A stretch of DNA of 64,000 nucleotides from Nitrospirota bacterium (GCA_020846775.1 JADLDG010000035.1:31569-95568); one strand, 5' to 3'; shown: positions 8,120 to 29,020, counted from the stretch's first letter. Notes: a model not told the origin generated them from the sequence alone. Translations and numbers: made by a program.

Positions 8120-8127
8120 ATTATATG

Positions 8128-12089: not shown

Positions 12090-12195
12090 AAAATCACCTC
12101 TTTATATAGTTTGTAAATCAAATTCCTAAACTTATAAATACTATGTAATTCAACTTTCCTTGTCAAGTGGCCAATTGTATGGTATCTATTTATAA

Positions 12196-12993
12196 GTGAA
12201 TCAAACCTTTCATAACCTTAAGTACATTGAAAAAAAAAGATGGGAACTATTAAGTCTTGAATTATTAGTCCTCTCTTTCCTCACTATTTCCATCATAGTA
12301 TTGTCTCTCCTTGAACAAAAGTATTTAACTCTCTTATTTTTGCCAATTCTTACGGTATTATTCTCTGCCTACATAATTAACAAACAGCGGGAATTAAAGA
12401 AACTTGATGAAGACCTTTCAGAGGAGCTGTTCAGGAATGTTGAAGAGAAGATGAAGGCAGCCTCAATGCAAGAGAGACTAAGAGAAGTAACCCTGCTATA
12501 CAGGGCAGGCCGCATAACGGTTTCATCTCTAACACTGCAAATGAAGCTCGACAAGATGCTGCATCTTGCTTTCAATATGGTAAATGCCAATAGAGCGTCA
12601 ATCATGTTGATAAATGAGAGAATGGGGAACTTTGTAGTTGCAAGCTCTATAGGCAATTACCCGGACATAGTAAGGGCCAATTCGCAAAGGGTGGATGAAG
12701 GCGTAGCGGGATGGGTCTGCAAACACGGGACACCTCTGATCCTTACAGGGAAAGTTAATGATGACAGGTTTCACAACTTCCAGGACAAGCCTGAAGATAT
12801 CTCTTCTTCGATTTGCCTGCCCATAAAACTGAAAGGACAGGTAATAGGAGCGCTTAATTTAAATTATCAGCATGAACAAAAAAGGGTTTTTACAGAACAC
12901 GATGTACGTTTATTGTCCATCTTTGCAAGATATATCTCGACAACAATTGAGCAAACACAGATTTCTTTAAAGAAACAATCAATCCAGGCTTAA
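12196..12993 (+). CDS. membrane-anchored GAF domain protein
   Basis: Two N-terminal hydrophobic helices followed by a GAF-like domain (ASIMLINERMGNFVVASS ... LPIKLKGQVIGALNL). Confidence 0.5.
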   Translation: MNQTFHNLKYIEKKRWELLSLELLVLSFLTISIIVLSLLEQKYLTLLFLPILTVLFSAYIINKQRELKKLDEDLSEELFRNVEEKMKAASMQERLREVTLLYRAGRITVSSLTLQMKLDKMLHLAFNMVNANRASIMLINERMGNFVVASSIGNYPDIVRANSQRVDEGVAGWVCKHGTPLILTGKVNDDRFHNFQDKPEDISSSICLPIKLKGQVIGALNLNYQHEQKRVFTEHDVRLLSIFARYISTTIEQTQISLKKQSIQA

Positions 12994-13749
12994 TGAATTC
13001 CTTGTTTTTGCATTCTTGCAAAAGATCTTCGCACCTATAATACCGAGTTCATACAATATTATAAGTGGAACAGCCATTAATAATTGATTAAATACATCAG
13101 GAGTCGGTGTTAATACGGCTGCCACTATAAAATTGACAAGAATGGCATACTTGCGGTTCTTTGTTAAAAATCCTATGGTAAGAATCCCTGTTTTAGTAAG
13201 AAAAATAATCACAATCGGAAGTTCGAAAATTAAGCCAAATGCCAGCATGAACTTCATAACAAAATCCAGATATGAACCGATTGATATCATGGGAGTCAGG
13301 TTCGACGTCTTGTATGTAAACAGAAATTCAAGAGCATATCTGAGAATAACAAAATAACAGAAAAGAACTCCAAGTACGAAGGAAACTATACCTACAATCA
13401 GAAAGGGCAGTGCATATTTTCGTTCATTTCCATAAAGCCCGGGTGATGCAAACCTCCACAACTGGTAAAGAATTACAGGCATGGCAATAAAAAACCCTGC
13501 AAGAAATGCCACCTTAAAGTTAGTCCAGAGTGCCTCGGCAGGGGATAAGAACACGAAGCTATGCTTGTGCTCACTGCTTATAAGATCTGTTAGAATTTTA
13601 AGAAGATCTTCAGAAAAATAAAAGGAAATAACGAACCCGGCAACAACCGCTACTACGGATACAATCAGACAAGTCCTTAGCTCTGCCAGGTGCCCTGTCA
13701 GAGACATCTTCTTGTCTGAGAATGTCTCATTTACATTATCATTACTCAT
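12979..13749 (-). CDS. tatC: Sec-independent protein translocase TatC
   Basis: N-terminal LTGHLAELRTCLI motif and six predicted TM segments. Length (256 aa) is typical of TatC. Confidence 0.8.
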   Translation of the reverse strand: MSNDNVNETFSDKKMSLTGHLAELRTCLIVSVVAVVAGFVISFYFSEDLLKILTDLISSEHKHSFVFLSPAEALWTNFKVAFLAGFFIAMPVILYQLWRFASPGLYGNERKYALPFLIVGIVSFVLGVLFCYFVILRYALEFLFTYKTSNLTPMISIGSYLDFVMKFMLAFGLIFELPIVIIFLTKTGILTIGFLTKNRKYAILVNFIVAAVLTPTPDVFNQLLMAVPLIILYELGIIGAKIFCKNAKTRNSLSLD

Positions 13750-13772
13750 CTATTCCGCTTCTTACATCTTTC

Positions 13773-14021
13773 TTAGACGCTCTTCTTTCCTGCCTTCTGC
13801 TTACTTTCCTCTTCCCGGAATATCTTGAGCATTATATCCTTTGCAAGAAGTTTCTCCTTCTGTAGATTCTTTCGAAGAACCTCGTCTTCAGGTGTAAGTA
13901 CGTGCTTTCTGTTCAGACTCCGTATTTCCCGTTCAAGCCTGTCATGTTTTTCCTCCATTAGCAGATACTCATCATTCTCCCTGCGCAGTTTTTCTTTCAA
14001 AGCCACACGCTTCTCTTTCAT
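13773..14021 (-). CDS. small coiled-coil protein (DUF465/YdcH-like)
   Basis: 82 aa, highly charged and helical. Pattern resembles the DUF465 family. Confidence 0.35.
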   Translation of the reverse strand: MKEKRVALKEKLRRENDEYLLMEEKHDRLEREIRSLNRKHVLTPEDEVLRKNLQKEKLLAKDIMLKIFREEESKQKAGKKSV

Positions 14022-14042
14022 AAATCCCCCTCTCCGGCCCCA

Positions 14043-14504
14043 TTAAAGCTCAAGGGCCATAACAAGTGCATCTTCCACAGGATTCTTATAGTACTTGGTT
14101 CTGCATACAATAACATTAAATCCAAATTTTCTATACAATTCCTGAGCCGCCATATTAGACCGCCTCACTTCCAATAATACGGTCTTTACACCATCTATTT
14201 TCCAGTAATCAATTGCAAATAGTAAGATGATTCGAGCGATGCCTTTTCTTCTGTAATTCTTTAGTACTGCAATGTTCATAATATGTGCTTCATCAACTAC
14301 GCGCCAGAAGCAAAAATATCCAACTAATTTCCCTGAAATCTGCCTGGCCACCCAGAGACGCGAAAATGAATTAAACAATTCTGAATGAAACATCTCAATG
14401 GCCCATGGATCAGAAAAGGCCTCTCGTTCAATCTGCATAACATCAAAGAGGTCCTCTTCTTTCATATCTTCAATTACGATGTTGTCCTCTCTGATCAATA
14501 CCAT
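14043..14504 (-). CDS. rimI: ribosomal-protein-alanine N-acetyltransferase (GNAT)
   Basis: GNAT motifs (QIEREAFSDPW ... RRKGIARIIL). Start moved to MVLIRE (14504) because the longer ORF would run into tsaB. Location next to tsaB is typical. Confidence 0.7.
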   Translation of the reverse strand: MVLIREDNIVIEDMKEEDLFDVMQIEREAFSDPWAIEMFHSELFNSFSRLWVARQISGKLVGYFCFWRVVDEAHIMNIAVLKNYRRKGIARIILLFAIDYWKIDGVKTVLLEVRRSNMAAQELYRKFGFNVIVCRTKYYKNPVEDALVMALEL

Positions 14505-14535
14505 CCCTCTGCCGGCCTCCTGCTTCCCCGTACGA

Positions 14536-15228
14536 TTATCCCTGTCTTGCCATAAACTTAATCTCTGCCTCAGACTTACGTATATAGACAGGGACCAGAC
14601 TTCCGGAACCGGCCTTGCCCTTCTGAAAGTTTTGCAGACCCAATATTGCAACAGATATCCCGGAAGGCAGTATAGTATTGGCAGGGGCAAAAAATGCCAG
14701 ATCTCCCAGATGTCTCTTTAACAGATCCCTGTAGACATGTACCCCATCCCCTGTAAACATAACTGGTTCATTGAGCCTGTCAATGAGCTTATCGGGGGAT
14801 ATTACAAAATCATCTGTCTGCCTGATAATACTACCATTGTCCGTATATTTAAAGAGGGCCGTATAAACCTCACTTTTCTTAGCGTCGAGGAGTGGACAGA
14901 CGAGATACCTGCAAAACGGGGTATTAAATGCAAGCGCCTCGAGAGTAGATACAGGAACAACACTCTTTCCAGATACCAAACTGAGCCCTTTGACCGTACC
15001 CAGACCTATCCTCAGTCCTGTAAAAGAACCAGGCCCTATTGAGATTGCCAAACACTCTATCTGATCCAGGGTAATTTGTACACTCTCAATAAGACCGGAG
15101 ACAGCCTCCATCAATCTCTCAGAATGAGTTCTCTCAATATTGAGGCTAATCTGACCAAGGGGCCTGTCATCATCAATAATACCAACACTACCCATCATGG
15201 TGGATGTATCTACACCTATTACCTTCAT
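14536..15228 (-). CDS. tsaB: tRNA threonylcarbamoyladenosine biosynthesis protein TsaB (YeaZ)
   Basis: N-terminus MKVIGVDTSTMMGSVGI and an inactive Kae1/YgjD-like fold. Conserved tsaB-rimI pairing. Confidence 0.75.
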   Translation of the reverse strand: MKVIGVDTSTMMGSVGIIDDDRPLGQISLNIERTHSERLMEAVSGLIESVQITLDQIECLAISIGPGSFTGLRIGLGTVKGLSLVSGKSVVPVSTLEALAFNTPFCRYLVCPLLDAKKSEVYTALFKYTDNGSIIRQTDDFVISPDKLIDRLNEPVMFTGDGVHVYRDLLKRHLGDLAFFAPANTILPSGISVAILGLQNFQKGKAGSGSLVPVYIRKSEAEIKFMARQG

Positions 15229-15926
15229 TTCTTAACCTCATTATATACTATCTTCTTAAACCTCACCCTACCTATCTTTCGTCCTATTCCATTGTTTATT
15301 ATAATCTCAAACGGCGTCATTATGCCATTGACAGCCCTGAAGTCTCTGTAGATCGCATCAAAAATTCTGACACCATATTTGTCAGGAAGGCTTGAGTAAA
15401 GTTCTTTTTTTACTATCACCGTTTCTGTTTTGTCAATCCACCAGCGCCGTAGCGGATTGGCAATACCGCCTGAACAGATCAGCTGAGTCACCACATAGAG
15501 ATTACCTGTCTCCTCTGTAAACCAGCTATATTCCCTGGAATTATCACTTCCGTAAAAATCAATAACCTCCTTAATGATGTTTGGAGGTAGTGTATCCTTA
15601 TCCGGGAAATTACTAACATCACCGGAAATAACTCCATCTACAAGCTTGATATCAAATAGGGTAAAACCGGCCGGCGAGAGACCGACAAGCCGGAAGATGC
15701 CCTCTTTTTCATAACTTAAATATGCATCAATGGAAGGGCTGGCAACATCAGCAGGTTTAATATTCAGTTCAGCCCTTAAACTATTTACGGCCAGTAATCT
15801 CTCCTGAAGAAATTCAAAAGAACTTGTATCACTGCTTACAGAGAGATTAAGCGGCGGCCTCACTGATGTACATGATAGAAGAAACGGAATTGATAACAGT
15901 ATAAATAAATAAAATACAATTTTCAT
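15225..15926 (-). CDS. putative lipoprotein
   Basis: Signal peptide with lipobox (FLLSC). 233 aa. No catalytic motifs. Confidence 0.4.
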   Translation of the reverse strand: MKIVFYLFILLSIPFLLSCTSVRPPLNLSVSSDTSSFEFLQERLLAVNSLRAELNIKPADVASPSIDAYLSYEKEGIFRLVGLSPAGFTLFDIKLVDGVISGDVSNFPDKDTLPPNIIKEVIDFYGSDNSREYSWFTEETGNLYVVTQLICSGGIANPLRRWWIDKTETVIVKKELYSSLPDKYGVRIFDAIYRDFRAVNGIMTPFEIIINNGIGRKIGRVRFKKIVYNEVKK

Positions 15927-17281
15927 CAGAAAAACATCGCATCAATCGCACTCTTGACCGTTGAAACTCCAATTACCTCAACATTGGTATTTATGGAAAG
16001 CTGACCTGCATTACGCTCAGGAATTATACAACGTTTAAAACCCAACTTTGCGGACTCCTTTACCCTGACGTCCGCGGAGGTCACGCCACGAACTTCACCA
16101 CCCAGACCAACTTCCCCAAAAACCACCGTTTCCGGATCAATAGGAATCTCCCTGAAACTTGATGTCAGAGCGGCTATAATGCTCAGGTCAATAGCAGGCT
16201 CACTTAACTCAAGACCTCCAACGACATTGACAAAAATGTCCTGGCCCTGAATATGGATACCGACTCTTTTGTCAAGAACCCCGACCAGAAGCAGCAACCG
16301 GTTATAGTCAACACCGATTGCCCCCCTCTTAGGTATACCAAAAGGAGATGCGCTGACCAGTGCCTGAATCTCGGTCAGTATGGGCCGGCTACCCTCTATG
16401 CTGGCTGCTACAACTGAACCTGCTGAACCTGCTGTCCTCTCTGACAAAAAAAGACTTGAAGGATTTGATACCTCCTCAAGACCGCCTTCCCTCATTTCAA
16501 ACACCCCTATTTCATGGGTAGACCCAAAACGATTTTTTACTGACCTTAATATTCTGTATGGATGTCCCCTGTCACCTTCAAAATACAAAACAGTATCAAC
16601 GATATGCTCCAGCACCCTCGGACCCGCGATTGTCCCATCCTTTGTAACATGACCGACAATAAAAACAGGTACCCCGTTCTTTTTTGCATAATTCATCAGG
16701 ATAGAGGCTGTTTCACGCACCTGACTAACACTGCCCGGGGCTGAAGAAATAGCGGCAGTATACATGGTTTGTATAGAGTCAACTATCAGGGCATTGTATG
16801 CTGACTTCTGAAGGTGTATCAGTATTTCATCTAAGGAAGTCTCAGATACGATGTAAAGGCCTTTTGAAGAAACATCAAGCCTTTCAGACCGGAGCTTAAT
16901 CTGTGCAGGTGATTCTTCACCTGATATATACAGAACTTTTTTTGTAACGTCTGTTACTTTCTCAGCAACCTGCAGGAGAAGTGTTGACTTTCCAATTCCA
17001 GGGTCTCCGCCTATCAGAACAACTGATCCCGGGACAATTCCACCGCCCAGTACTCTGTCGAACTCCCCGATTCCGGTCAGCAGTCTGTCACCCTTCTCAT
17101 ACTCTATATCATCAAGTACACAGGGGATAATTTCTGAATCAGGGCTCCTGGTGGTAAGCGGTACGGCATTGACACTCTCTTCCGCTATAGTATTCCATCC
17201 GTTGCAATCGGGACACCGTCCCATCCATTTAGCTGAACTATAACCACAGGCTTGACATATAAACAGACTCTTCAGTTTCAT
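15926..17281 (-). CDS. radA: DNA repair protein RadA/Sms
   Basis: N-terminal zinc ribbon CxxC...CxxC (CQACGY...CPDCNGW). Walker A GDPGIGKST. KNRFG motif. Lon-like C-terminal domain. Confidence 0.9.
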   Translation of the reverse strand: MKLKSLFICQACGYSSAKWMGRCPDCNGWNTIAEESVNAVPLTTRSPDSEIIPCVLDDIEYEKGDRLLTGIGEFDRVLGGGIVPGSVVLIGGDPGIGKSTLLLQVAEKVTDVTKKVLYISGEESPAQIKLRSERLDVSSKGLYIVSETSLDEILIHLQKSAYNALIVDSIQTMYTAAISSAPGSVSQVRETASILMNYAKKNGVPVFIVGHVTKDGTIAGPRVLEHIVDTVLYFEGDRGHPYRILRSVKNRFGSTHEIGVFEMREGGLEEVSNPSSLFLSERTAGSAGSVVAASIEGSRPILTEIQALVSASPFGIPKRGAIGVDYNRLLLLVGVLDKRVGIHIQGQDIFVNVVGGLELSEPAIDLSIIAALTSSFREIPIDPETVVFGEVGLGGEVRGVTSADVRVKESAKLGFKRCIIPERNAGQLSINTNVEVIGVSTVKSAIDAMFF

Positions 17282-17307
17282 ATCCTGTCTTTATTAACTT
17301 TTAGACC

Positions 17308-17667
17308 CTACTCCCCTCCATCTGCATTGCCTCCCAGTGTCCGTGTGACTAATTCACTGATTTTTTTCTTATCCTTCGACGAAATATTTACGAATTTTAT
17401 ACCCATACCGGGAACAAAGTCCCTTGCAAATTCTATTCTGCTCCATACTACCAATCCTTTCATAACAGTCTTGTCAATATCTCCCGGCAGGAACAATTCC
17501 ATTGTAATGACATCGTCTATTGAGAACGGGTGAAAAGTCTCTATAAACAGACCACCTCCCCCGATAACTGAGGTGAAACCCTCCTCTATCACTATGCTTT
17601 CAGGACTATGGTACTTTATAATCAGGGAAAGAGGAGCGCGTAAAAATCGTCGTCGTTCCTTATTCAT
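17308..17667 (-). CDS. PilZ domain protein (putative c-di-GMP receptor)
   Basis: RxxxR (RRRFLR) and DxSxGG-like (TSVIGGGG) motifs. 119 aa. Immediately downstream of purF. Confidence 0.65.
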   Translation of the reverse strand: MNKERRRFLRAPLSLIIKYHSPESIVIEEGFTSVIGGGGLFIETFHPFSIDDVITMELFLPGDIDKTVMKGLVVWSRIEFARDFVPGMGIKFVNISSKDKKKISELVTRTLGGNADGGE

Positions 17668-17681
17668 ATATCAGAATTACT

Positions 17682-19058
17682 TCATACGTCAAAAAGACCA
17701 AGCTGATTTATTTCGTCATCACTAAACGGAATAGGATAATCCCCATTAAAACAAGCAACACAGAATTTATCCGGCGGGTTGCTGACGGCCTTTAACATCC
17801 CCTCTATACTCAGATATGCGAGGGTATCTGCCGTTATTTGCCTGCCGATATCTTCAACCTCCATATTCGAGGCAATAAGCTCCCTTCTTGTAGGTGTATC
17901 TATACCATAAAAACAGGAGTATTTTACAGGCGGTGATGCTATCCGCATATGAACCTCGACTGCCCCTGCCTCCCGTATCATTGTTACTATCTTCTTGCTT
18001 GTGGTACCCCTGACGATGGAATCATCCACAACTACGACCCTTTTTCCTTTCAACACTTCTTTAACAGGGTTCAGTTTCAGTCTTACGCCAAAGTTTCTAA
18101 TGGATTGCTTTGGAACAATGAATGTCCGACCAACATAATGACTCCTGATAAGTCCGTTGTCAAACGGAATACCGCTGCCCTCGGCAAAGCCCATGGCAGC
18201 AGGGGTTCCGGAGTCAGGAACAGGGATAACAATATCAGCATCAACCGCCGATTCTTTAGCCAGTTCTACACCCATCTTCTTCCGTATACTATTGACGCTC
18301 TCACCATACACATAACTGTCAGGACGTGCAAAGTAGATATGCTCAAAAATACAAAACGCCTCATTTACTTTATCAAATGGCATATATGATGTCAGTCCAT
18401 TATTATTTATGACTACAACTTCTCCCGGCAGGATGTCCCGAATAAAACGTGCGCCTATCAACTCAAAGGAACTTGTCTCGGAAGAAAGTACAAGAGACCC
18501 GTTGATTTCACCAAGTGACAGTGGACGAAAACCATAGGAATCCCTTACACCAATCATCTCCTTATCCGTAAGTATCAGCATCGAGTATGCGCCTTTTACC
18601 TTTTTCAGTGCATCTATTATTCTATCAAGTATAGTCTTCTCTCTGGAAAGCGCTATCAGGTGGACAATGACCTCACTGTCAATAGAAGACTGAAAGATTG
18701 AGCCATGTGCCTCCAGCTCACGCCTGAGAAAGGATGCGTTGACTAAATTACCGTTATGGGCCAGTGCAAGAGAGCCCATTGCAAAGTTTACAACTACAGG
18801 CTGCACATTTTCGATGATACTATCGCCGCAAGTTGAGTATCTGTTGTGACCTATAGCGCTCCTCCCCTTCAGAAATTCGAAATTATCATCCTTGAAGATC
18901 TCGGAAACAAGTCCCATCCCTTTTTTGCTGTAAAGTTTACTGCCATCACATGATACTATTCCTGACCCTTCCTGCCCTCTGTGTTGAAGACCATGGAGCC
19001 CCAGATATGTGAGGTTTGCTGCCTCGTTATGATTAAAGATGCCAAATATTCCGCACAT
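17682..19058 (-). CDS. purF: amidophosphoribosyltransferase
   Basis: Catalytic N-terminal cysteine in MCGIFGI. PRTase motif VVVVDDSIVRGTT. Start set at MCGIFG, so the ORF-track N-terminal extension was discarded. Confidence 0.9.
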   Translation of the reverse strand: MCGIFGIFNHNEAANLTYLGLHGLQHRGQEGSGIVSCDGSKLYSKKGMGLVSEIFKDDNFEFLKGRSAIGHNRYSTCGDSIIENVQPVVVNFAMGSLALAHNGNLVNASFLRRELEAHGSIFQSSIDSEVIVHLIALSREKTILDRIIDALKKVKGAYSMLILTDKEMIGVRDSYGFRPLSLGEINGSLVLSSETSSFELIGARFIRDILPGEVVVINNNGLTSYMPFDKVNEAFCIFEHIYFARPDSYVYGESVNSIRKKMGVELAKESAVDADIVIPVPDSGTPAAMGFAEGSGIPFDNGLIRSHYVGRTFIVPKQSIRNFGVRLKLNPVKEVLKGKRVVVVDDSIVRGTTSKKIVTMIREAGAVEVHMRIASPPVKYSCFYGIDTPTRRELIASNMEVEDIGRQITADTLAYLSIEGMLKAVSNPPDKFCVACFNGDYPIPFSDDEINQLGLFDV

Positions 19059-19066
19059 ATATGACC

Positions 19067-21286
19067 CTATTCTTCCCCAAGATATCCCTGCATAGCATTT
19101 TCCCATGCGTCAGCTATGACATCCACCGGCATATCAATTAAAACAGTTGTTTTATGTCGAATCACGAGTTTGTCTCCCACAACTTTTCCAATGACGGTAA
19201 AAGGAACCCCTCTGTTCACGGCAACTCCCTCCAACTCTTTAACCCTCTCAGGGCTTACAGTAATTATAATCCTTGATTGTGTCTCCCCAAAGAGAATGGC
19301 ATCCGCTCTTATTTCATCTGAAAGCCCTATTTCTGCTCCCATATTTCTCTTATCATCAGGCCTTATGCAACACTCGGAAAGGGCCACCGCCAGTCCACCC
19401 TCTGATGTATCATGTGCTGACTTTATTATACCCTGTTTAATTCCGTAAAGACAAAGTTCCTGCACATTTTTTTCAAGGTCAAGGTCAAGAAATGGAGGAA
19501 CTCCCCTGACCTTATAATGTATTTCCCTGAGATATTCACTCATTCCAAGTTCTTCAATATTGTTCCCTAAGAGGATTATTATGTCCCCTTCTTTTTTAAA
19601 GTAGTGCGTCATGCATTTAGATATATCTTCAATTATACCAGCCATTCCAATTACTGGAGTTGGATAAATGGATATATCGTTTGTCTCATTATAAAAACTT
19701 ACATTACCGCTTATAACAGGTATGTTAAATTTCCTGCAGACTACTGATATGCCTTCTATTGCCTGCTGAAACTGCCACATAATCTCAGGCTTTTCAGGAT
19801 TTCCGAAGTTGAGACAATCTGTGAGCCCAACAGGTTCGCCTCCTGCACATACAATATTTCTCGCGGCCTCTGCAACGGCTATTGCACCTCCGGCATAAGG
19901 ATCAGAGAAACAGTAACGACTGTTACAGTCTGTTGTAATGGCTATCCCTTTATTAGTCCCCTTTATCCTGATAACAGCAGAGTCAGAGCCAGGGCCAACG
20001 ACGGTATCTGTGCGCACCATATGATCATACTGCCTGTATACGCATTCTTTGGATGCAATCGTGGGGGAAGAGAGAATCGTCAGGAGAGCTTTATTCAGAT
20101 CCTCAGGTACCGGGAGATTGTCCATGTCAAGGTCATGAAGGATATCAAGATAAGGCGGAGGGGCCAGGCTCCTGTCATAAAGCGGGGCCTCATCAGTCAA
20201 GGACTCAATCGGGATTTCTGCAACCAATTCATCCATGTTAATTACCCGGATCTTTTTGCTACCAGTAACCTCACCTATAACAACTGCATCAAGGTCCCAT
20301 TTATGAAATATCTCCATAACTTCCTTTTCTTTTGCAGGTTCAGTCACTATCAGCATCCTTTCCTGAGATTCTGACAGCATTACCTCATAAGGGGTCATAC
20401 CGGATTCCCTCATGGGGACACGGTCAATATGAATATCAATGCCAGTTCCTGCCCTTCCTGCCATCTCGCAGGATGAACTTGTAAGCCCTGCGGCCCCCAT
20501 ATCCTGTATACCGACAATGAGTCCCTTGTTCATGACCTCAAGGCAAGCCTCGAGAAGAAGCTTTTCTGTAAATGGGTCTCCAACCTGCACTGTAGGCCTC
20601 TTTGCATCGGATGTTTCATCAAACACATCAGAAGCCATTGTAGCGCCATGAATACCGTCCCTGCCTGTCTTTGATCCAACATAAATAACAGGATTACCAA
20701 CACCGCTTGCCACGCCTTTAAATATCCTGTCCTTTTTGACTATTCCAAGGGCAAATACATTTACAAGTATGTTGTTGTTGTAAATCTCATCAAAATATAT
20801 TTCTCCACCGACTGTAGGAACCCCCATACAATTACCATAGCCTGCGATTCCACTTACTACACCGGTGAAAAGATATCTGTTGCGAGGTATCTTTATATCA
20901 CCAAAACGAAGTGAATTAAGTATTGCTACCGGCCTTGCCCCCATAGTGAAAATATCCCTCAGGATACCACCCACTCCGGTAGCAGCGCCCTGATATGGCT
21001 CAATAAATGACGGGTGATTATGGCTCTCCATCTTAAAGACTGCTGCAAGTCCATCACCAAGGTCTATAATCCCGGCATTCTCGCCGGGTCCCTGCAATAC
21101 CCTGTCACCTTTGGTAGGAAACTTCTTCAGGTGTATTCTTGAGCTCTTATAACTACAGTGCTCGCTCCACATTACAGAAAAGATACCCAACTCTACAATG
21201 CGAGGTTCCCTTCCAAGGATCTTTAATATCCTCTCGTATTCATCAACAGTAAATCCATGTGATTCTATTATTTCATTAGATAACAA
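19067..21286 (-). CDS. purL: phosphoribosylformylglycinamidine synthase subunit PurL
   Basis: 739 aa with duplicated AIRS-like domains typical of PurL, sitting between purQ and purF. Confidence 0.9.
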
Positions 21287-21299
21287 GGGTATCCCTCAA

Positions 21300-22007
21300 T
21301 CATGATTTATGCTTCATCTTTTCCACATAATATACCATTGACTCAAAAAGGGTATATCCATCCGTCCCGCCAAGTATCTTTTCCCCGCATCGCTCAGGAT
21401 GCGGCATCATTCCCAGCACATTTCCCTTATCATTGCATACCCCTGCAATATTACCGATTGATCCATTAGGATTAAAATCATCATCTGTATTTCCATCATT
21501 CCCCGCATATCTGAAAACAATCTGATTATTCTTCCTAAGCTGAGAATATGACTCCTGGTCTATGTAATAATTACCTTCTGCGTGTGCAATCGGCATCTTT
21601 ACAATCTGATTTTCAAAATATTTAAGGGTAAAAGGTGTATTAATATTATCAACTCTTAGATAAACATCCTTACAGATAAACTTTAAGGATTTATTCCGTA
21701 ACATCACACCTGGAAGGAGCCCTGCCTCGAGGAGTATCTGAAAACCATTACATATGCCAAGGACAAGCCCTCCACTTTCTGCAAATTGCCTTACAGCTGT
21801 CATGATCGGGGAAAGCCGGGCTATAGATCCCGTTCGAAGGTAATCACCATAAGAAAAACCGCCGGGCAGGATGACTGCATCATATTGAGAGAGATCATTT
21901 TCCTTGTGCCATACAAAACTTGCAGGCCTGCCTAATACATGCTTTACTATATTATAGCAATCATGGTCACAATTAGAACCGGGAAATACGATTATGGCAA
22001 ATTTCAT
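21300..22007 (-). CDS. purQ: phosphoribosylformylglycinamidine synthase glutaminase subunit PurQ
   Basis: [16 protein letters not shown] start and a GICNGFQ glutaminase nucleophile motif. Start set at MKFAIIV. Confidence 0.9.
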
Positions 22008-22069
22008 TTTTAAAGAAGATTCGCTGCGAATCACACACCTTTTCGTTTATTATAACAGGAATTAAACTT

Positions 22070-22705
22070 TTACGGCAAGACCAAATTACACTGCTGGCTT
22101 TTATTGATAAAATCAACTATTGCTTCATTGAAATAATCTGGCAGAGGCGGCAGGATTACTGAAGTTCGCTGCCGATACAGTGCCCTGCCTTTTTCAATCT
22201 CTTTACTCAGGATATCATAGAATGTACCATCTGCAGCGCTCATATACGCTGTTTCATGGTTATAATGCACAATATCTGAAACAATGGCCCGTGCCAATCT
22301 CTTCATATCCTCTTTTATCTGCATATCCGAATCGCATGTGTAATACTTACAAACTGCCGCGAGGAGTTTAGTACTGACCAAATCTCTGTCAATAACATCA
22401 TCTGCATACTGATGCGCATCCTTACTGCTTTGAACATCGTACCCCGTTATCAGGACGACTCTTGTATTCCTGAAACGCTCCACACCCTTGATTATCTCGC
22501 ATGGTGAAAATCCCATTATCCTGGATAGTCCGGAGTCTGCGATTACTACAGCAGGACAGTACGATTCAATCAAACTGAAAAGCATATGCTGGTTTAATGC
22601 GGAAATAAATCTGAACCATTTAGGTTCAAGGATACGGGTAATAATTTCATTCAACCCCGGCTCAGTCGTGCATATCAAAATTACATCTGACGACGCATAA
22701 CTCAT
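22070..22705 (-). CDS. atypical/degenerate receiver (REC-like) domain protein with unknown C-terminal domain
   Basis: N-terminal roughly 120 aa follow the REC topology (DVILICTTEPGL ... PAVVIADSG ... VVLITGYD ... KLLAAV) but lack the canonical acidic DD pocket. The C-terminal roughly 90 aa are unknown. Its stop overlaps the cheW start (ATGA). Confidence 0.4.
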   Translation of the reverse strand: MSYASSDVILICTTEPGLNEIITRILEPKWFRFISALNQHMLFSLIESYCPAVVIADSGLSRIMGFSPCEIIKGVERFRNTRVVLITGYDVQSSKDAHQYADDVIDRDLVSTKLLAAVCKYYTCDSDMQIKEDMKRLARAIVSDIVHYNHETAYMSAADGTFYDILSKEIEKGRALYRQRTSVILPPLPDYFNEAIVDFINKSQQCNLVLP

Positions 22706-23202
22706 ATGTGCTCCATCCTGGTCTCAATCAATAATATTAAGTTATTATTGAATTTAAAAGCTGCCTTAAAATATTTTAAGCTCTCTTTTCCAATAAAATC
22801 AGGAACAGGCAAATATCTGCCTAAAGGTACAGACACGATCCCTTCAACTGAATCAGCAAGTATACCTATAAAGAAATCATCATAATGCACTATCAGAATA
22901 CGAGTGCTCCCGGTGACATTTGTAGCTGATCTTCCGATATATTCCATAAAATCAAGCACTGGAATTACTATCCCTCTTAAAGGCAAAACACCTTTGACAT
23001 ATGAGCACGTGTTGGGAACTGCTGTAAGCCCTGTGTAGTGAATCACTTCCTTTACCATTGAAACTCCCATGGCATATTCCTGACGGGATAGCCTGAAAAT
23101 CAGACATTTTTCTGCTGAATATTCAGAACTGATATCTGAGCTGCCTGCGATAGATGTGTCGTCTTTTCCCCGTAAATTAGGACGATATGTCATAATTGTC
23201 AT
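22702..23202 (-). CDS. cheW: chemotaxis coupling protein CheW
   Basis: 166 aa. CheW-like domain pattern (LIFRLSRQEYAMGVSMVKEV ... GVLPLRGIVIPVLDF ... RILIV). Confidence 0.75.
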   Translation of the reverse strand: MTIMTYRPNLRGKDDTSIAGSSDISSEYSAEKCLIFRLSRQEYAMGVSMVKEVIHYTGLTAVPNTCSYVKGVLPLRGIVIPVLDFMEYIGRSATNVTGSTRILIVHYDDFFIGILADSVEGIVSVPLGRYLPVPDFIGKESLKYFKAAFKFNNNLILLIETRMEHI

Positions 23203-23208
23203 AAACCT

Positions 23209-24135
23209 TCATATCCCGCTGCCATATGCAACTCGGTTTCTGCCATCACGTTTTGCCCTGTACAATGCCTGATCAGCCTTATTAATCAATGCATCACAAC
23301 CCTCCTTGGTGTCATCAGGGAATGTCGATACTCCTATGCTTGCTGTCACCGGTCTGCCACCATTCAACTCAATCAGGAGCGGGTTATCTTCTATGATTTT
23401 TCGGATTCTTTCAGCCACAATGTGAGACCCGATAACTGTATTTTGTGACAGGACGATAATAAATTCATCACCTCCATATCTAACTGCAAAATCATATCCT
23501 CTAACCATTACCTGCAGAAGTTTTGCGACTTCCTTGATAATTTCATCACCACGCTGATGTCCAAAGGTATCGTTAATGTCTTTGAAATTATCAATATCCA
23601 TGATTATCAGGGAAAGCTTAAGGTTAAAACGATCACTTCTATTATATTCTCTCCTGAGTGTATCGTATAGATATCGCTGATTATATAAACCAGTTAGTGA
23701 ATCTACTACAGTTACATGTTCCAACTCTGCTATTTTGGTTTTTAGTTCTTTCTGAAGGCTTTTCATCCTCAATAATATACTTACCCTTAAAGACAATTCA
23801 TGCGGATGAAATGGTTTAGTCATGTAATCTATGGCCCCGCTTTCGAGGCCTTTAATCCTGTCATATATTTTCCGGTTGGAAGACAACATGATAACCATGA
23901 TATCCTCAAACCTCTTTTCCTTGTTTATCATTTCCATTAACCGGAATCCATCCATTCCCGGCATCACTACATCGCAGACTATCATATCAATATTTTCTTT
24001 AGATAAGATCTTTAAAGCGCTGAAACCATCATTTGCCTCAAAATAACGTACAAACAGGTTTGCATTCCTGAGACTTTCGATTACTTTCTGTCGCAAAAGT
24101 GGGGAATCATCAATTATTAATACACTGTTATTCAT
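23209..24135 (-). CDS. response regulator-diguanylate cyclase (REC-GGDEF, WspR/PleD-like)
   Basis: REC domain (LIIDDSPLLRQ, phospho-acceptor D in IVCDVVMPGMDG, conserved K in TKPF). GGDEF domain with an intact GGDEF signature and an RxxD I-site five residues upstream (RGYD). Start set at MNNSVLIIDD. Confidence 0.8.
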   Translation of the reverse strand: MNNSVLIIDDSPLLRQKVIESLRNANLFVRYFEANDGFSALKILSKENIDMIVCDVVMPGMDGFRLMEMINKEKRFEDIMVIMLSSNRKIYDRIKGLESGAIDYMTKPFHPHELSLRVSILLRMKSLQKELKTKIAELEHVTVVDSLTGLYNQRYLYDTLRREYNRSDRFNLKLSLIIMDIDNFKDINDTFGHQRGDEIIKEVAKLLQVMVRGYDFAVRYGGDEFIIVLSQNTVIGSHIVAERIRKIIEDNPLLIELNGGRPVTASIGVSTFPDDTKEGCDALINKADQALYRAKRDGRNRVAYGSGI

Positions 24136-24288
24136 TAAACGACTTTTCGGTAACTGATTGAATATCTTAAGAAAGAGAACACGGTAAAAGCGCAAACCCG
24201 ATTAGTCGGGAAATCACTCCGGGGAATTAGTTAACTGCCTGAGAAATCGTCTGAATATTGTTCTAAAGTGGATACAGGATAGTCTATT

Positions 24289-26376
24289 TCAGGCAAAAAC
24301 TCTTTCTGCAAGTCCGATGACGTCTATAACTGGTACAACCTTTCTGGCATCTATCTCTGCAAACCCTTCAATACCCTGAATTTCTTTTAGGAACTTACCG
24401 GGAGGTTTAATAAGGATCTCTCTCTGACCATGTATTTTATCAACTATAATACCCATTCTCTTCTGTGCCAAGCCCGCTATAATTACGTATTCATTCTTGC
24501 TGTATGACTCCCAGTGACCTTCATGGTATTTCAGGACATCCTTTAATCTAACCAGAGGCAAGAAATCTCCTCTAAGGTTAATACTTTCTCTATCCCTGAT
24601 AATTTTTATTTCGCATTCCTTTAAGCTGAGATTTTCCGATATCAAATTTACAGGTATTGCAAATTCCCGTCCTGACTCTGAAACTATCAGAGCCCTGACT
24701 ATAAGCAATGTTACAGGAAGTGTAATACGGAAAGTAGTTCTCTTACCATAAACTGTTTCAACTTCTATCATACCAGACAAATCCTCTATGCTCTTTGCTA
24801 CCACATCAAGGCCTACCCCTCTGCCGGATATGTCATCTATTGTGTTTTTTGTGGTAAAGCCCGGCATAAAAAGCATCTTCAGGAGTGTCTTTTCATCCAT
24901 TTCATCATTTCTAAGCAGACCCATGATAAGCGCCCTGTTTTTAATAACATCAAAATCAATACCACATCCATCATCTTCAATGTCAATCACCACAGTCCCA
25001 TCTCTCTGCACAGACGTAATTCTTATTGTCCCTGCAGGATCCTTACCTCTTTTTCTCCGTACTTCATCATCCTCTATACCATGATCAATTGCGTTACGTA
25101 TTATATGCATTAGTGGGTCTGCAATTTCTTCTATAATTGACTTGTCCAGTTTAGTATCACCACCGGACACTTCAAACTTTATTTTCTTCGACAAGTCCTT
25201 TGAAAGCACTTCCACTATTCTATTTAGCCTTGTGTACAAATACTCTATGGGTACCAACCTTATATCTATGAGTTTATCTCTCAAGAATGCTATTTTCTTG
25301 TGCAGCTGCCTGGTAGATCTATGAATGTCAAGGAAAACCAGGTCTTTGCCGTACTTCATCTTCAGGTCATTCATCAGGTGTGTTACAGTACTATTTAATA
25401 ATAATATTTCTCCTACGGTATCAAGCAGTGTCTCCAGCCTTTCAATATCAACCCTGACTGTCTTGGCTATGCTTTTTACCGTCTGTGGAGGAGGTTCGAC
25501 CTGATCAATAATTTGTTCCTGTATTTGAGTTTCAAATGGGTCACCTTCCAAGTCTATATTCTGGATACTTATTATTTCACCAGAAAATAGAGGATCCCGC
25601 TCACTAACCCTGTCTTCCGCAACTTGTTCAAGAAACTCCTGCCCCTGCATCATTTGAGTCCCTGAGACCAGTTCATAACGACGCAAAATATCTTCATGTT
25701 GCGAGGAATAAAGAAGTTCAAAAGATGCCATGTCATCCTCGGAAAACCCGGAGACTGGCATTACTGTGATAACCTCTCCGTAGCATGTAAGATTCGCCCT
25801 GAGTTCTGTCATCGCATCATCAACAGTGTCAATATGCGTTCGTACAATAATCCTGAAAATCCTGCGCCCTTCTTTAACAGACTCCATAAGTCTGTGTTGC
25901 TCAAATTCAGGCAGCCTCCCTAACAGAGCATACGGTAATCCGGCAAATCTATTGTTCTTAAAAGTTTCATCATGTATCCCGCTATCAAGGTATAGCCCCA
26001 TTTTTTCAATTACCGGCCCTATCTCAGTATACTCTTCTCCCTGATCATTAATATTGTTAAGGAGCTCCGTAAAGACATCAGCAACTTCAAATAACGTATC
26101 TACAACTTTATAATTTAGCTGAATCCTGCCGAACCTGAGACAATCCAACAAATCTTCGAGGTTGTGACTTAATGAGCTTATCCTTGGAAACCCGGATATC
26201 TCAGAAATTCCTTTCAAGGTATGGATTTCACGAAACACAGCATTAACTACATCCGGATATTGTACCGTTGCTGTATTGCATGTTGATTTCAGTATATAGA
26301 GGTTTTTGTTGAAATTACTGACAATATCCTCTGCCTCAGCCAGGAAGTCCTTGTGATTATTATATTGTTTATTCAT
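24289..26376 (-). CDS. cheA: CheA-type histidine kinase (Hpt - atypical linker - dimerization - HATPase - CheW-like)
   Basis: Hpt motif HTLKG. H-kinase dimerization region (VRVDIERLETLLDTVGE). HATPase_c (DHGIE...DDGCGID, GRGVGLDVV). C-terminal CheW-like domain. A roughly 200-aa segment between Hpt and dimerization is not a canonical P2. No fused REC. Confidence 0.8.
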   Translation of the reverse strand: MNKQYNNHKDFLAEAEDIVSNFNKNLYILKSTCNTATVQYPDVVNAVFREIHTLKGISEISGFPRISSLSHNLEDLLDCLRFGRIQLNYKVVDTLFEVADVFTELLNNINDQGEEYTEIGPVIEKMGLYLDSGIHDETFKNNRFAGLPYALLGRLPEFEQHRLMESVKEGRRIFRIIVRTHIDTVDDAMTELRANLTCYGEVITVMPVSGFSEDDMASFELLYSSQHEDILRRYELVSGTQMMQGQEFLEQVAEDRVSERDPLFSGEIISIQNIDLEGDPFETQIQEQIIDQVEPPPQTVKSIAKTVRVDIERLETLLDTVGEILLLNSTVTHLMNDLKMKYGKDLVFLDIHRSTRQLHKKIAFLRDKLIDIRLVPIEYLYTRLNRIVEVLSKDLSKKIKFEVSGGDTKLDKSIIEEIADPLMHIIRNAIDHGIEDDEVRRKRGKDPAGTIRITSVQRDGTVVIDIEDDGCGIDFDVIKNRALIMGLLRNDEMDEKTLLKMLFMPGFTTKNTIDDISGRGVGLDVVAKSIEDLSGMIEVETVYGKRTTFRITLPVTLLIVRALIVSESGREFAIPVNLISENLSLKECEIKIIRDRESINLRGDFLPLVRLKDVLKYHEGHWESYSKNEYVIIAGLAQKRMGIIVDKIHGQREILIKPPGKFLKEIQGIEGFAEIDARKVVPVIDVIGLAERVFA

Positions 26377-26389
26377 CTTTCCAACTTTG

Positions 26390-27409
26390 TTACTTTGATG
26401 CCATTAATACAATACCTGCTACCTTGATAAAAGCCTCAAGGGTTGAAGTATCACCTATTTGCCCCCTTCCAGGCAGATTGTCTCCATATAGTATCGCTGT
26501 AACCGTTTTATCTTCTATTAAAGGAGCTACGAAGACCTCTTCAGGTAATCCTGCGCCAAGATGTTTAAAAAGGTATGAATTCCAATCAGATTCAGGCAAC
26601 TGCCCTTTGTAACTCATTCTATTAGTTATAACATCTTTAATTACAGAAGGCTTATCAAGGGGAATACAAAGCCCCTCTATCCTTATTTCAGCTGAATCCA
26701 ACGATATTCCAACTTGTCCAAACCCAACTGCCTTCTCTCCGTCAAGCTTGAATATAACCGCTCTGCTCATCATTTCTCCTGCAAACCTCAGAAGCATGAC
26801 TAACATCTCAGTACTCGCTGCAGGAACTGACAGCTCTTCAATCAATGAAATCAGGGTGTTGGGATAAGCTCCATACTCTACGGCTGAAGATCCTGAGGGC
26901 ATGTTTTCTATAGGTACTTGAACCATCTTTTTGCCCTCGTCCCTCAGTCTGGTTCCTTCGAGCAGGATATACTCAGTACTCACACTTATATTTTGAGGAA
27001 TTTTAGGCATTGGCTGTTCCGGTTCAAAGCGAAACACCCCTTCTTCCCAAGACAACATTTCATATATGATTTCTTTTATCTGCGACTGGATAAAGGATTC
27101 AAGTGCATCTTTTTCAATCAACTTGTTCTCTGTCAGTATGGCGCCCAAGGGTTCATAAATCTTCCTGTCCCGTTGAATCCTCAAGGCTGCTTCGAGGTCG
27201 CCTTCCATCAAGACACCTTCCCTGATCAGCCTTTCTCCAAGTTTTTCTTTGCCATGCATTGAGGCATACAGCATCTTCCCGTCGTGAAATACAACTCTCC
27301 CACTTCCGGCAGGGCTTTCTAATTTCAAGATTCCGCTTTTCTTGCTCAAATGGACTATCTGAAGTATATCCGGAAGGCTAAGATCTGATAAGTGTCCTTC
27401 GAGGCTCAT
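26390..27409 (-). CDS. DUF4388-like N-terminal domain plus GAF-like domain protein
   Basis: N-terminus LSDLSLPDILQIVHLSKKSGILKL matches, from memory, the DUF4388 domain seen in Che-associated proteins. The C-terminal half resembles a GAF fold. Sits between purS and cheA. Confidence 0.4.
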   Translation of the reverse strand: MSLEGHLSDLSLPDILQIVHLSKKSGILKLESPAGSGRVVFHDGKMLYASMHGKEKLGERLIREGVLMEGDLEAALRIQRDRKIYEPLGAILTENKLIEKDALESFIQSQIKEIIYEMLSWEEGVFRFEPEQPMPKIPQNISVSTEYILLEGTRLRDEGKKMVQVPIENMPSGSSAVEYGAYPNTLISLIEELSVPAASTEMLVMLLRFAGEMMSRAVIFKLDGEKAVGFGQVGISLDSAEIRIEGLCIPLDKPSVIKDVITNRMSYKGQLPESDWNSYLFKHLGAGLPEEVFVAPLIEDKTVTAILYGDNLPGRGQIGDTSTLEAFIKVAGIVLMASK

Positions 27410-27441
27410 AATTAATAAGGGTTCTATGAAAACAATAAGGT

Positions 27442-27687
27442 CTATTTTTCAATTTCATATCGGAAATCCTCTACAATAGTATTAGCGAGGAGCTTATTAC
27501 ACATCTCCTTAATCTGAGAATCCAAATTCTCCCCGGATGTATCATCGAAACTTAACTCTATATACTTTCCTATCCTGACATCAGCAACAGATGCATACCC
27601 CAGAGTCTTTAATGAATGTTTAACCGCCTTACCCTGCGGATCCAAGATACCATTTTTTAACGTAACATATACTCGTGCCTTCAACAA
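27442..27687 (-). CDS. purS: phosphoribosylformylglycinamidine synthase subunit PurS
   Basis: 81 aa. MLKARVYVTLKNGILDPQGKAV is a typical PurS sequence. Confidence 0.85.
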   Translation of the reverse strand: MLKARVYVTLKNGILDPQGKAVKHSLKTLGYASVADVRIGKYIELSFDDTSGENLDSQIKEMCNKLLANTIVEDFRYEIEK

Positions 27688-27730
27688 TCAACCTCCCTCC
27701 GGCCGATAGATTACACCTACCAACCTTTCA

Positions 27731-29020
27731 TCAGAATATCCTGTTAAAAATATAATCTACATGCTTCAAATGATAATCCATATCAAAGCATGACCTTACA
27801 TCAGCCTCACTCAACTGCGACATTACATCTGAATCATGAAGAAGCAGATTCTGAAATTCCTCGCCTTTGTTCCATGCACTCATGGCATTTTTCTGTACCA
27901 GCCTGTATGCCTTATCCCTGTCCATTCCTTTTCTTACAAGCTCGAGCAATACCCTTTGTGAATTAATAAGTCCACGGGTCAAGTTTAGATTCTTCATCAT
28001 ATTTTCAGGGTAGACGACCATATCCCTCATGATACTTATCAACCTGTTGAGCATATAGTCTATAAGAATCGTACTATCAGGCATAATAATGCGTTCCGCT
28101 GAAGAGTGGCTGATATCACGCTCATGCCACAGCGGGATGTTCTCCAGCGCCGCAACACAATTGGACCGGACAATCCTCGCCAGGCCGCAGATATTTTCAG
28201 ATCCTACCGGATTCCTCTTGTGCGGCATTGCAGAAGAACCCTTCTGTCCTTCGGTAAAAGGTTCCTCAACCTCCAGCACCTCTGTTCTTTGGAGATGCCG
28301 GATCTCAGTAGCAATTTTATCAAGTGTACCTGATATAATGCCGAGCGTACACATGAATTCGGCGTGCCGGTCTCGCTGCAAAATCTGGGTAGATACGGGC
28401 GCTGGTTTTAAGCCCAGCTTTTGACACACATATTCTTCAACAAATGGTGGTATGTTGGCAAAGGTTCCAACCGCACCTGATATCTTGCCACAGGCAATCG
28501 TATCCCTTGCCCTGACAAGGCGATCTATATTCCTCTTTGTCTCTTCGTACCATAAGGCCATTTTAAGCCCAAACGTCACCGGCTCTGCATGAATGCCGTG
28601 AGAACGTCCCATCATGACGGTATTCTTGTAGACATTTGCCTTTTCCTTTAACACATCCAGAAGCCTGTACAGATCATCAAGGATAATGTCTGACGCATCC
28701 ATTAATTGCAGGGCAAGCCCTGTATCAAGGATATCAGATGATGTCAGTCCCAGATGGAGGTATTTTGCTTCATCACCGATACACTCGGAAACTGCAGTGA
28801 GAAAGGCTATAACATCATGTTTAACATCAAGTTCAATCTCATTGATCCGTTCCGTATTTATTCTACCCTTTTCTTTAATTACTTTGACTGCACCCTCAGG
28901 TATCTCACCCTTTTGGGCCAATGCCTCACAAACCAGAACTTCAATGGCAAGCCACTTACTATATTTATTTTCCGGTTCCCATACATGCTTCATCTCAGGC
29001 AGTGCATAACGATCTATCAT
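27731..29020 (-). CDS. purB: adenylosuccinate lyase
   Basis: 429 aa. Fumarate lyase superfamily signature (GSSAMPHKRNP). Confidence 0.9.
   Translation of the reverse strand: MIDRYALPEMKHVWEPENKYSKWLAIEVLVCEALAQKGEIPEGAVKVIKEKGRINTERINEIELDVKHDVIAFLTAVSECIGDEAKYLHLGLTSSDILDTGLALQLMDASDIILDDLYRLLDVLKEKANVYKNTVMMGRSHGIHAEPVTFGLKMALWYEETKRNIDRLVRARDTIACGKISGAVGTFANIPPFVEEYVCQKLGLKPAPVSTQILQRDRHAEFMCTLGIISGTLDKIATEIRHLQRTEVLEVEEPFTEGQKGSSAMPHKRNPVGSENICGLARIVRSNCVAALENIPLWHERDISHSSAERIIMPDSTILIDYMLNRLISIMRDMVVYPENMMKNLNLTRGLINSQRVLLELVRKGMDRDKAYRLVQKNAMSAWNKGEEFQNLLLHDSDVMSQLSEADVRSCFDMDYHLKHVDYIFNRIF

Follow-up and report, generated by a model that had tools for sequence, protein, structure and literature searches.

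In a 64-kb stretch of DNA from a Nitrospirota bacterium (GCA_020846775.1 JADLDG010000035.1:31569-95568; hereafter the window, with positions counted from its start), the purine biosynthesis genes purS and purQ are separated by five signaling genes, and a comparison with related genomes indicates that these five genes are a cut-down derivative of an old chemosensory cassette headed by a PATAN-domain protein, and not a small recent insertion. The region under study (17308–29020) consists of eleven minus-strand open reading frames (ORFs) in the order purB, purS, PATAN-GAF, CheA, REC-GGDEF, CheW, atypical REC, purQ, purL, purF and PilZ, where PATAN is the domain once listed as DUF4388 and now named PatA_N (bioRxiv 10.1101/2021.06.11.447907). 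An earlier note on this DNA had described a minimal Che-like module for cyclic di-GMP (c-di-GMP) signaling that was inserted inside the purine operon. The separation of purS from purQ by five signaling genes is confirmed at the coordinates given below, but the minimal insertion gives way to the reduced form of a 14-gene cassette, which occupies the purS-purQ slot across Nitrospiria-level distances. We refer to it as the PATAN-type cassette of Nitrospirota, a category defined by this analysis.

One genome per species was scanned with a PATAN-GAF alignment, which yielded 80 loci, nearly all of them from Nitrospirota, and the downstream side of the loci was read by anchoring on the atypical REC protein in an alignment-based search. 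About 70 of the 80 loci reach far enough to show the next genes; in these, CheA comes after PATAN, in most cases separated from it by a CheY gene. The block ribBA-ribH-nusB-purB-purS lies immediately upstream of PATAN in 23 of the 80 species-level loci (type A); another 50 have a different context and an AAA gene in place of MerR (type B), and 7 were too short to assign. In Candidatus Manganitrophus noduliformans (locus L086), 14 genes spanning about 16.4 kb fill the purS-purQ gap, in the order PATAN, CheY, CheA, MerR, CheW, MCP (methyl-accepting chemotaxis protein), CheW, MCP, Zn-ribbon-REC, HEAT, CheR, CheB, GAF and CheY. In two further loci (L087 and L088), the genes from CheA through purF are ordered as in L086, with two opposite-strand genes added between CheA and MerR, and a Nitrospiria metagenome-assembled genome (MAG; L021) carries a nine-gene cassette that again ends at purQ. 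Identity at this distance is about 36% for PATAN and 52–60% for purB. Because full cassettes are present in such distant lineages, the slot has been occupied since before those lineages diverged; gene order thus indicates that, in one Nitrospirota clade, the cassette after purB-purS (originally before purQLF) predates the split between the window lineage and Ca. Manganitrophaceae.

The reduced cassette of the window type was also found in L001/L006, L007 and L008, plus L003 and L010. Compared to the Manganitrophus cassette, which fills the same slot, likewise begins with PATAN-GAF and has orthologous CheA, CheW and Zn-ribbon-REC members, the window and its lineage are without the two MCPs, CheR, CheB, HEAT, both CheYs, the GAF protein, MerR and the second CheW. 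The window in turn adds a REC-GGDEF gene (some full cassettes have one) and a PilZ gene after purF, and its atypical REC is without the Zn-ribbon. PATAN-GAF, CheA, REC-GGDEF and the atypical REC are kept throughout the window lineage; CheW is kept here and is dispensable in L008, where a 124-nt gap takes its place in the orthologous cluster. Other end-points of reduction were seen as well: L003 retains the five genes and no longer has purQLF downstream, and only purS-PATAN-CheY-CheA remain in L014, L015 and L017, with a PAS protein and then unrelated housekeeping genes after CheA in L014 (the only annotated one of the three). Spacers in L008 (6530–6655, 2366–2454 and upstream of purB) are filled with short low-complexity or inverted repeats, such as aggatttag and ggggtcaag/cttgacccc, which resemble small repeat elements, and the spot of the lost CheW is taken by one of them.

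At least six full-type clusters (L004, L013, L016, L020, L085 and L090) and all reduced ones have a REC-GGDEF gene in the same position, ahead of CheW; the pur-embedded cassette of Manganitrophus, L021 and others is without it. Related cassettes also lie in quite different surroundings, between era-der and infA-leuS in L084 and L089, and beside DUF520 and MtrC/MtrB-like cytochrome genes in L029. On the strength of these gene orders, the conserved feature is a Che cassette after purS, not c-di-GMP synthesis among the genes for its GTP precursor. The L029 locus (3846–20462) holds a type B cassette, PATAN-CheY-CheA-AAA-CheW, with a divergent sCache-HAMP-HD-GYP gene and DUF520 (YajQ-family) upstream and MtrC-like multihaem cytochromes and an MtrB/PioB-like porin downstream; these neighbors hint at a connection with extracellular electron transfer there.

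Gene identities in the window were assigned by Pfam and NCBIfam profile scores, and for GAF by fold comparison; in this way all of the earlier domain calls were borne out, the GAF call only by the fold. Upstream of the cassette lie purB (adenylosuccinate lyase; 27731–29020, minus strand; TIGR00928, 555 bits), which belongs to the conserved block ribBA-ribH-nusB-purB-purS, and purS (formylglycinamidine ribonucleotide [FGAM] synthase subunit; 27442–27687, minus; PF02700, 112.7 bits; NF004630, 117.7 bits), which begins with a TTG start codon preceded by the ribosome-binding site GGAGGGAGG. Downstream of it lie purQ (FGAM synthase glutaminase subunit; 21300–22007, minus, or to 22034 in a longer call; NF002957, 334.6 bits), purL (FGAM synthase large subunit; 19067–21286, minus; NF002290, 1065.6 bits) and purF (amidophosphoribosyltransferase; 17682–19058, minus, or to 19106 in a longer call; GATase_6/7 and Pribosyltran domains). 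The NCBIfam equivalog thresholds are exceeded by purB, purS, purQ and purL. The likely start of purQ is the ATG at 22007 ('MKFAIIVF'), not the GTG at 22034, and this N-terminus is conserved in eight loci; purF likely starts at the ATG at 19058 (MCGIFG), from where it is 94% identical to its L001 orthologue. With these two starts, the apparent overlap of purL and purF disappears. We also revised the start of the cyclase gene to the ATG at 24135, as in its relatives, which widens the gap between CheA and the cyclase to 153 nt. Gaps from purB to CheA then measure 43 (purB-purS), 32 (purS-PATAN) and 13 nt (PATAN-CheA); those from CheA to purQ measure 93 (153 with the relatives' ATG), 6, −4 and 35 nt (62 with the ATG of 'MKFAIIVF'); and purQ-purL, purL-purF and purF-PilZ are 13, 8 and 14 nt apart, respectively. 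The eleven-gene order recurs in the independent assemblies L001/L006, L002, L007 (RBG_16_43_11) and L008, with PATAN identities to the window of 73%, 68% and 61%, indicating that it is due neither to mis-assembly nor to chance juxtaposition. The PATAN protein of the window is 100% identical to MCC6544038.1 (Nitrospirota MAG).

Is the reduced cassette still at work? Nine of the 14 ancestral genes are lost, receptors and adaptation enzymes among them, and the last receiver is degenerate, as one would expect if the five genes were a decaying, non-functional relic of the large cassette. We reject that reading as barely credible on the ratios of nonsynonymous to synonymous substitution (dN/dS), which were computed between the window and L001 at a dS of about 1, near saturation: PATAN 0.16, CheA 0.15, REC-GGDEF 0.045, CheW 0.28, atypical REC 0.18 and PilZ 0.13, with the pur enzymes at 0.03–0.08. 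Within the module, constraint is strongest on the cyclase, which is level with purQ and purF, and weakest on CheW (the five module genes thus span 0.045–0.28). All five reading frames are intact, the catalytic motifs are all present, and the same gene set is found in at least four species-level lineages, which also argues against decay. As far as sequence can tell, the module is still functional.

The CheA-type histidine kinase (695 amino acids; 24289–26376, minus) matches the Pfam models for Hpt, dimerization, HATPase and CheW-like P5 domains and carries the phospho-histidine motif HTLKG in its Hpt domain. Its CheW-like domain ends at residue 691 of 695 and the protein has no REC match, so that there is no C-terminal receiver; its NCBIfam scores (NF041336, 345 bits; NF007835, 278 bits) are both below the equivalog cut-offs. 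Next to it is the REC-GGDEF diguanylate cyclase (23209–24135, minus, with 308 amino acids from the ATG at 24135, or 328 from 24195; GGDEF 162.8 bits, REC 91.3 bits). Its receiver has the DD pair, the acceptor Asp, the Ser and the Lys, and its output domain has an intact GGDEF motif with an RxxD inhibitory site (I-site; RGYD) that lies five residues before it. Six orthologues conserve every one of these motifs. Among solved structures, PleD, WspR (3bre) and Leptospira DgcR (6zxm) come closest, with E-values of 3.6e-60 for PleD and 1.3e-39 for DgcR over the receiver and GGDEF region. PleD and DgcR are the best sequence matches, and their catalytic and I-site residues are all present in the window cyclase, which stays below both NCBIfam equivalog cut-offs (PleD, 259 against 474; DgcR, 180 against 500). 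In contrast to PleD, the window cyclase has only one receiver, and the kinase presumed to act on it is CheA, not a classical sensor kinase.

In the Wsp system of Pseudomonas (WspA-F and WspR), the MCP WspA, the hybrid CheA-REC kinase WspE, CheR and CheB act together with a REC-GGDEF output protein. The window cluster is alike in that a CheA-type kinase and CheW are encoded beside a REC-GGDEF protein with active site and I-site, the predicted output being c-di-GMP and not motor switching. It differs in that its CheA has no fused receiver and in that a dedicated MCP, CheR and CheB are missing from the cluster; Wsp in turn has no counterpart of the PATAN-GAF protein or of the atypical REC and its helical domain. 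The Wsp-like route from CheA to the cyclase that the earlier note had drawn is a reasonable one, as the cyclase has the sole canonical receiver of the module, but three features that define Wsp are lacking: the hybrid kinase, the MCP and CheR/CheB. By this analogy, we take the module to work like Wsp without being a member of the Wsp family, its kin being a PATAN cluster with CheYs as the main outputs, and we class it as an alternative-function chemosensory pathway with a cyclase output.

At the head of the cassette, in every relative, stands the PATAN-GAF protein (339 amino acids; 26390–27409, minus), which in the window can be aligned over its full length with 14 relatives. Residues 53–110 are a helical, MshEN-like insertion, followed by a GAF-fold C-terminal domain at about residues 183–339. 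The insertion carries two tandem motifs of about 24 residues (xLGxxLxxxGxLxxxxLxxxLxxQ) and can be matched, one position after another, to the MshEN domains that bind c-di-GMP in Thermus PilF, Geobacter PilB and Vibrio MshE (5htl), whose consensus is RLGxx(L/V/I)(L/V/I)xxG(L/V/I)(L/V/I)xxxxLxxxLxxQ; the family profile matches PilF MshEN (6f8l) with an E-value of 2.9e-13. In those proteins the motif is N-terminal in a secretion ATPase, whereas here it is inserted within the PATAN domain. The Gly, Leu and Gln positions of the motif are invariant across the PATAN family, and the hydrophobic ones are retained. Of the two lead arginines, however, the one in motif 1 is replaced by Lys in the window protein (distant relatives have Arg), and the one in motif 2 by Pro in the whole family. 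The NCBIfam MshEN model (NF053729) reaches 33.3 bits, below its cut-off of 38. Binding of c-di-GMP by the insertion is thus plausible from the motif but uncertain, the lead arginines being missing.

No Pfam REC match was found in the window PATAN protein, whose C-terminal domain is the GAF fold. This sets it apart from the cyanobacterial Pix/Tax systems for type IV pili, in which a PATAN protein is likewise encoded with CheA, CheW and CheY, and carries an insertion related to the PilB/GspE N-terminal domain, but is fused to a receiver and serves as a phosphorylation target. A further distinction from those systems is that a diguanylate cyclase forms the output here and that the window showed no pilus genes.

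Gene content, motifs, conservation, selection and synteny are established here from sequence; the phosphotransfer, ligand binding and transcript structure of the module are what we infer. We give slightly better than even credence to the reading that it is a streamlined, functional derivative of the PATAN cassette, with a CheA-to-cyclase output as in Wsp and an inherited position. CheA would autophosphorylate on the Hpt histidine and pass the phosphate to the receiver of the REC-GGDEF protein, which, once phosphorylated, would switch on c-di-GMP synthesis as in Wsp. By analogy this phosphotransfer is the most likely route, because the REC-GGDEF protein has the only canonical receiver left in the module. 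The I-site would provide product inhibition of the cyclase. The 64 kb contain no MCP, CheR or CheB gene, and L008 does without CheW; the best candidate for an input or regulatory partner of CheA therefore appears to be the cytoplasmic PATAN-GAF protein, on which c-di-GMP may feed back through the MshEN-like insertion. The position in the pur operon would be inherited synteny.

A different account would make this an ordinary receptor-coupled array, in which CheA and CheW are coupled to MCPs from other parts of the genome and the cyclase provides one output among several. PATAN-GAF would then be not an input but an output or localization factor that acts on a motility machine, much as PATAN regulators of cyanobacteria do on PilB. 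We think this unlikely, though several observations would fit it. Two MCPs, two CheWs, CheR and CheB belong to the ancestral cassette; CheW is retained in the window, L001 and L007; the organism is flagellated; and the PilZ protein of the module most resembles a pilus-assembly PilZ. In Synechocystis, PATAN-REC proteins bind the pilus motor (bioRxiv 10.1101/2021.06.11.447907). But a tblastn search of the 64-kb window for MCP, CheR, CheB and HEAT genes found none (the CheB matches cover its receiver domain only), CheW is under the weakest constraint and has disappeared from the L008 cluster, and no CheY is left to reach a motor. PATAN is moreover fused to GAF and not to a receiver, so CheA cannot control it by phosphorylation. 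That the organism is flagellated follows from the minus-strand flagellar region at 39416–64000, where flgA, flgH, flgI, flgN, flgK, two flagellin-family genes, flaG, fliD and fliS lie at 53.4–63.9 kb, next to a putative flagellin-glycosylation island at 39.4–53 kb with Maf-like, GT1/GT2/GT9, methyltransferase and two radical-SAM genes.

Several points weigh against the reading of a streamlined cassette with a CheA-to-cyclase output. The partnership of CheA is read from adjacency only, and full-type relatives have four other receivers (two CheYs, CheB and Zn-ribbon-REC), so the cyclase may lie on a side branch or receive its phosphate from a different kinase. Genes for MCPs could lie outside the window, which is part of a 108-kb contig of a MAG. 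In the MshEN-like motif of the window protein both lead arginines are replaced (K and P), and the score is below the NF053729 cut-off. The promoter elements described below are sequence predictions, and no terminators were found. Lastly, the junction of purS and PATAN survives every rearrangement seen, which could reflect more than neutral synteny. Eight kb upstream of purB, we noted a hybrid sensor kinase with the architecture GAF-PAS-HisKA-HATPase-REC (693 amino acids; 36674–38755, minus), a possible alternative phosphodonor in the neighborhood. A GAF protein at 12196–12993 (plus strand) was considered as a displaced orthologue of the cassette's GAF protein and rejected, its 25% identity being generic GAF similarity.

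CheW (166 amino acids; 22702–23202, minus; PF01584, 85.2 bits) is followed by the atypical REC protein (211 amino acids; 22070–22705, minus), whose REC score of 25.6 bits falls short of the Pfam cut-off of 30.2. It keeps Asp57 and Thr86, its acidic pair reads T-T-E, and the Lys is replaced by Arg in the whole family; its AlphaFold2 model has a mean predicted local distance difference test score (pLDDT) of 85.5. Single-sequence searches reached close relatives only, and an alignment-based search was needed for the other homologues; by that alignment the protein belongs to the Zn-ribbon-REC family. In the full cassettes read, the Zn-ribbon-REC gene stands after the MCP and CheW genes and before HEAT-CheR-CheB. 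The C-terminus of the window protein is a conserved helical domain of about 80 amino acids (residues ~127–207; 22070–22330, minus) with the motif RLARxIVSDIxxYN...G.F..L..EIExG...Y..R, which matches no Pfam model even at E-values up to 1 and forms the C-terminus of the (Zn-ribbon-)REC proteins in Nitrospirota Che cassettes. The same domain occurs in proteins annotated from Deltaproteobacteria and Thermoanaerobaculia.

Next, we turn to transcription, on which the earlier note had argued that short gaps are consistent with one transcript. The gaps are indeed short, and about 22 consecutive genes (14.5–34.6 kb) are spaced by less than 115 nt, except at the gap between CheA and REC-GGDEF. However, 57 of the 63 ORFs of the window are co-directional, so that shared direction and short gaps are local background and a weak argument for a single transcript; conserved promoter-like elements inside the region also speak against it. 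The strand bias of the whole window is extreme, those 57 ORFs being on the minus strand, and nearly all of the 64 kb has a negative GC skew. A promoter and terminator scan stayed at the level of shuffled sequence (42 against 37.8 and 11 against 9.8, respectively) and is uninformative alone.

Before purQ there is a sigma-70-like element (22049–22078, minus) with the −35 hexamer TTGCCG at 22078–22073, an 18-nt spacer and an extended −10 box, TGnTATAAT, at 22057–22049; it matches the scan at 10 of 12 positions plus the TG, and its −35 box overlaps the last codons of the preceding gene, that of the atypical REC. The sequence TCTTGCCGT...TTCCTGnTATAAT upstream of purQ is invariant in the window, L001, L007 and L008 despite a dS of at least 1, and the remaining spacer has diverged. 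We credit this element because it is conserved across genomes, and not from the scan alone. A terminator-like hairpin at 22032–22018 was discounted, being conserved in neither L007 nor L008. In the 153-nt gap between CheA and the cyclase, conserved non-coding motifs (24140–24170, minus), T(T/C)AAGAT at 24170–24164 and CCGAAA at 24150–24145, are invariant in five genomes (the window, L001, L007, L008 and L003) with diverged flanks, and may represent a −10-like element plus a leader element. The spacer between purS and PATAN (32 nt here, 10–97 nt elsewhere) showed no comparable conserved element in the cross-genome comparison. In our reading, PATAN-CheA are probably carried on the transcript that runs from ribBA through purB-purS, whereas separate promoters are likely for the cyclase-CheW-REC group and for purQLF. 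With no terminator evident, transcription may still read through from purS into purQ.

Full-type clusters are laid out differently, often with two or three opposite-strand genes between CheA and MerR and with the last CheY only ~14 nt from purQ; in those genomes purQLF probably ride on the Che transcript, as the spacing suggests. A conserved palindrome, CCCACA-N6-TGTGGG, preceded by TTGCA, was seen upstream of MerR in L004 (~16850–16900), L090, L086, L087, L088 and L005 and is probably the operator and promoter of MerR, the small MerR-family gene that opens the second half of full-type cassettes. Gene and palindrome are both missing from the window.

These observations bear on the suggestion of the earlier note that the c-di-GMP module sits in the pur operon because it is coupled, transcriptionally and possibly functionally, to the de novo supply of purine (GTP), with one transcript from purB to PilZ. 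Short gaps and the lack of a convincing terminator are compatible with such a coupling, and the junction of purS and PATAN is kept in all 23 type A genomes, even where the remaining cluster is rearranged. Where the last Che gene is ~14 nt from purQ, the transcript is probably common to purQLF and the Che genes; other bacteria do show physiological links of c-di-GMP to purine metabolism (PMC11197132); and the GAF domain of PATAN-GAF is a fold that often binds nucleotides. Against this, the embedded cassette has no cyclase in Manganitrophus, L021 and others, related cassettes sit in unrelated contexts in other genomes, and the junction to purQ has been broken at least twice (L003 and L014). The conserved extended −10 element before purQ occurs in exactly the lineage with the 'minimal' module, and tight co-directional packing is background in the window. 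In addition, Rfam scans of the whole window at the gathering threshold, and of 15.5–31.5 kb at E-values up to 1, revealed no purine, ZTP or c-di-GMP riboswitch or attenuator. We find the suggestion unsupported, given the cyclase-less cassettes, the non-pur contexts and the promoter-like element of purQ itself, and consider the coupling improbable.

A bolder version would also account for the persistence of the purS-PATAN junction. In it, the PATAN-MshEN-GAF protein would have taken over from the membrane receptors, as a sensor in the cytoplasm with direct control of CheA; its MshEN-like insertion would bind c-di-GMP, and its GAF domain a ligand derived from purine. Together with the CheA-dependent cyclase it would form a closed-loop c-di-GMP homeostat, and the junction would reflect real co-regulation with purine biosynthesis. 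We regard this as highly speculative and quite improbable. Elsewhere in the window, we noted a fusion of DHHA1, two CBS domains and a poly(A) polymerase/CCA-adding head (700 amino acids; 185–2287, plus) and a Ppx/GppA phosphatase (3408–4358, minus), genes of nucleotide or alarmone-related metabolism that lie near c-di-GMP genes.

The PilZ-domain protein (119 amino acids; 17308–17667, minus; PF07238, 42.5 bits against a cut-off of 22.5; TIGR02266, 53.4 against 68.7) is encoded after purF in the reduced-cassette lineage only. The earlier note had called it a PilZ receptor. The PilZ domain is present, and the RxxxR motif is intact and conserved (RRFLR, residues 6–10), but the second c-di-GMP motif is non-canonical: in four orthologues it reads FT[S/G]V[I/M]GGGG instead of [D/N]xSxxG, with no D/N and a non-conserved Ser. 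The best PDB match is the Xanthomonas type IV pilus PilZ 3cnr (E 0.0017), a non-binding pilus-assembly PilZ. Judged by these motifs, its role as the receptor of the module is not secure. A second c-di-GMP pair was observed about 8 kb downstream of the module (7514–9276, minus). It consists of a GGDEF protein (382 amino acids; 8128–9276, minus; 162 bits), whose N-terminal 200 amino acids are unannotated and whose GGDEF domain is 42% identical to that of the module, and of a PilZ protein (201 amino acids; 7514–8119, minus), which starts 8 nt after the GGDEF gene.

In Bacillus subtilis, the pur operon reads purEKBCSQLFMNHD, with purS, purQ and purL contiguous. The order purB, purS ... purQ, purL, purF is preserved in the window, but purS and purQ are split here by five genes (5.4 kb), and by up to fourteen (16.4 kb) in relatives. 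Our literature searches found no description of a Che cluster inside a pur operon or of the PATAN cassette in Nitrospirota. Two things appear to be new: a phylum-level cassette that is headed by PATAN-GAF and has undergone repeated natural reduction, and the splitting of purS and purQ by up to 16 kb of signaling genes. The latter parts the genes for the FGAM-synthase subunits and raises the question of how purQLF are expressed there; a coupling between purine supply and c-di-GMP would matter if true. The PATAN-headed cassette is widespread in Nitrospirota, including the manganese-oxidizing Ca. Manganitrophus, and has been reduced repeatedly, one end-point being a four- or five-gene module, with a predicted output from CheA to the cyclase, in which receptor, adaptation enzymes and CheY are all absent. 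Minimal forms of this kind, made by nature, can reveal what the regulation of CheA needs, and PATAN-GAF, with its MshEN-like motif, is a candidate for a partner of CheA that is not an MCP.

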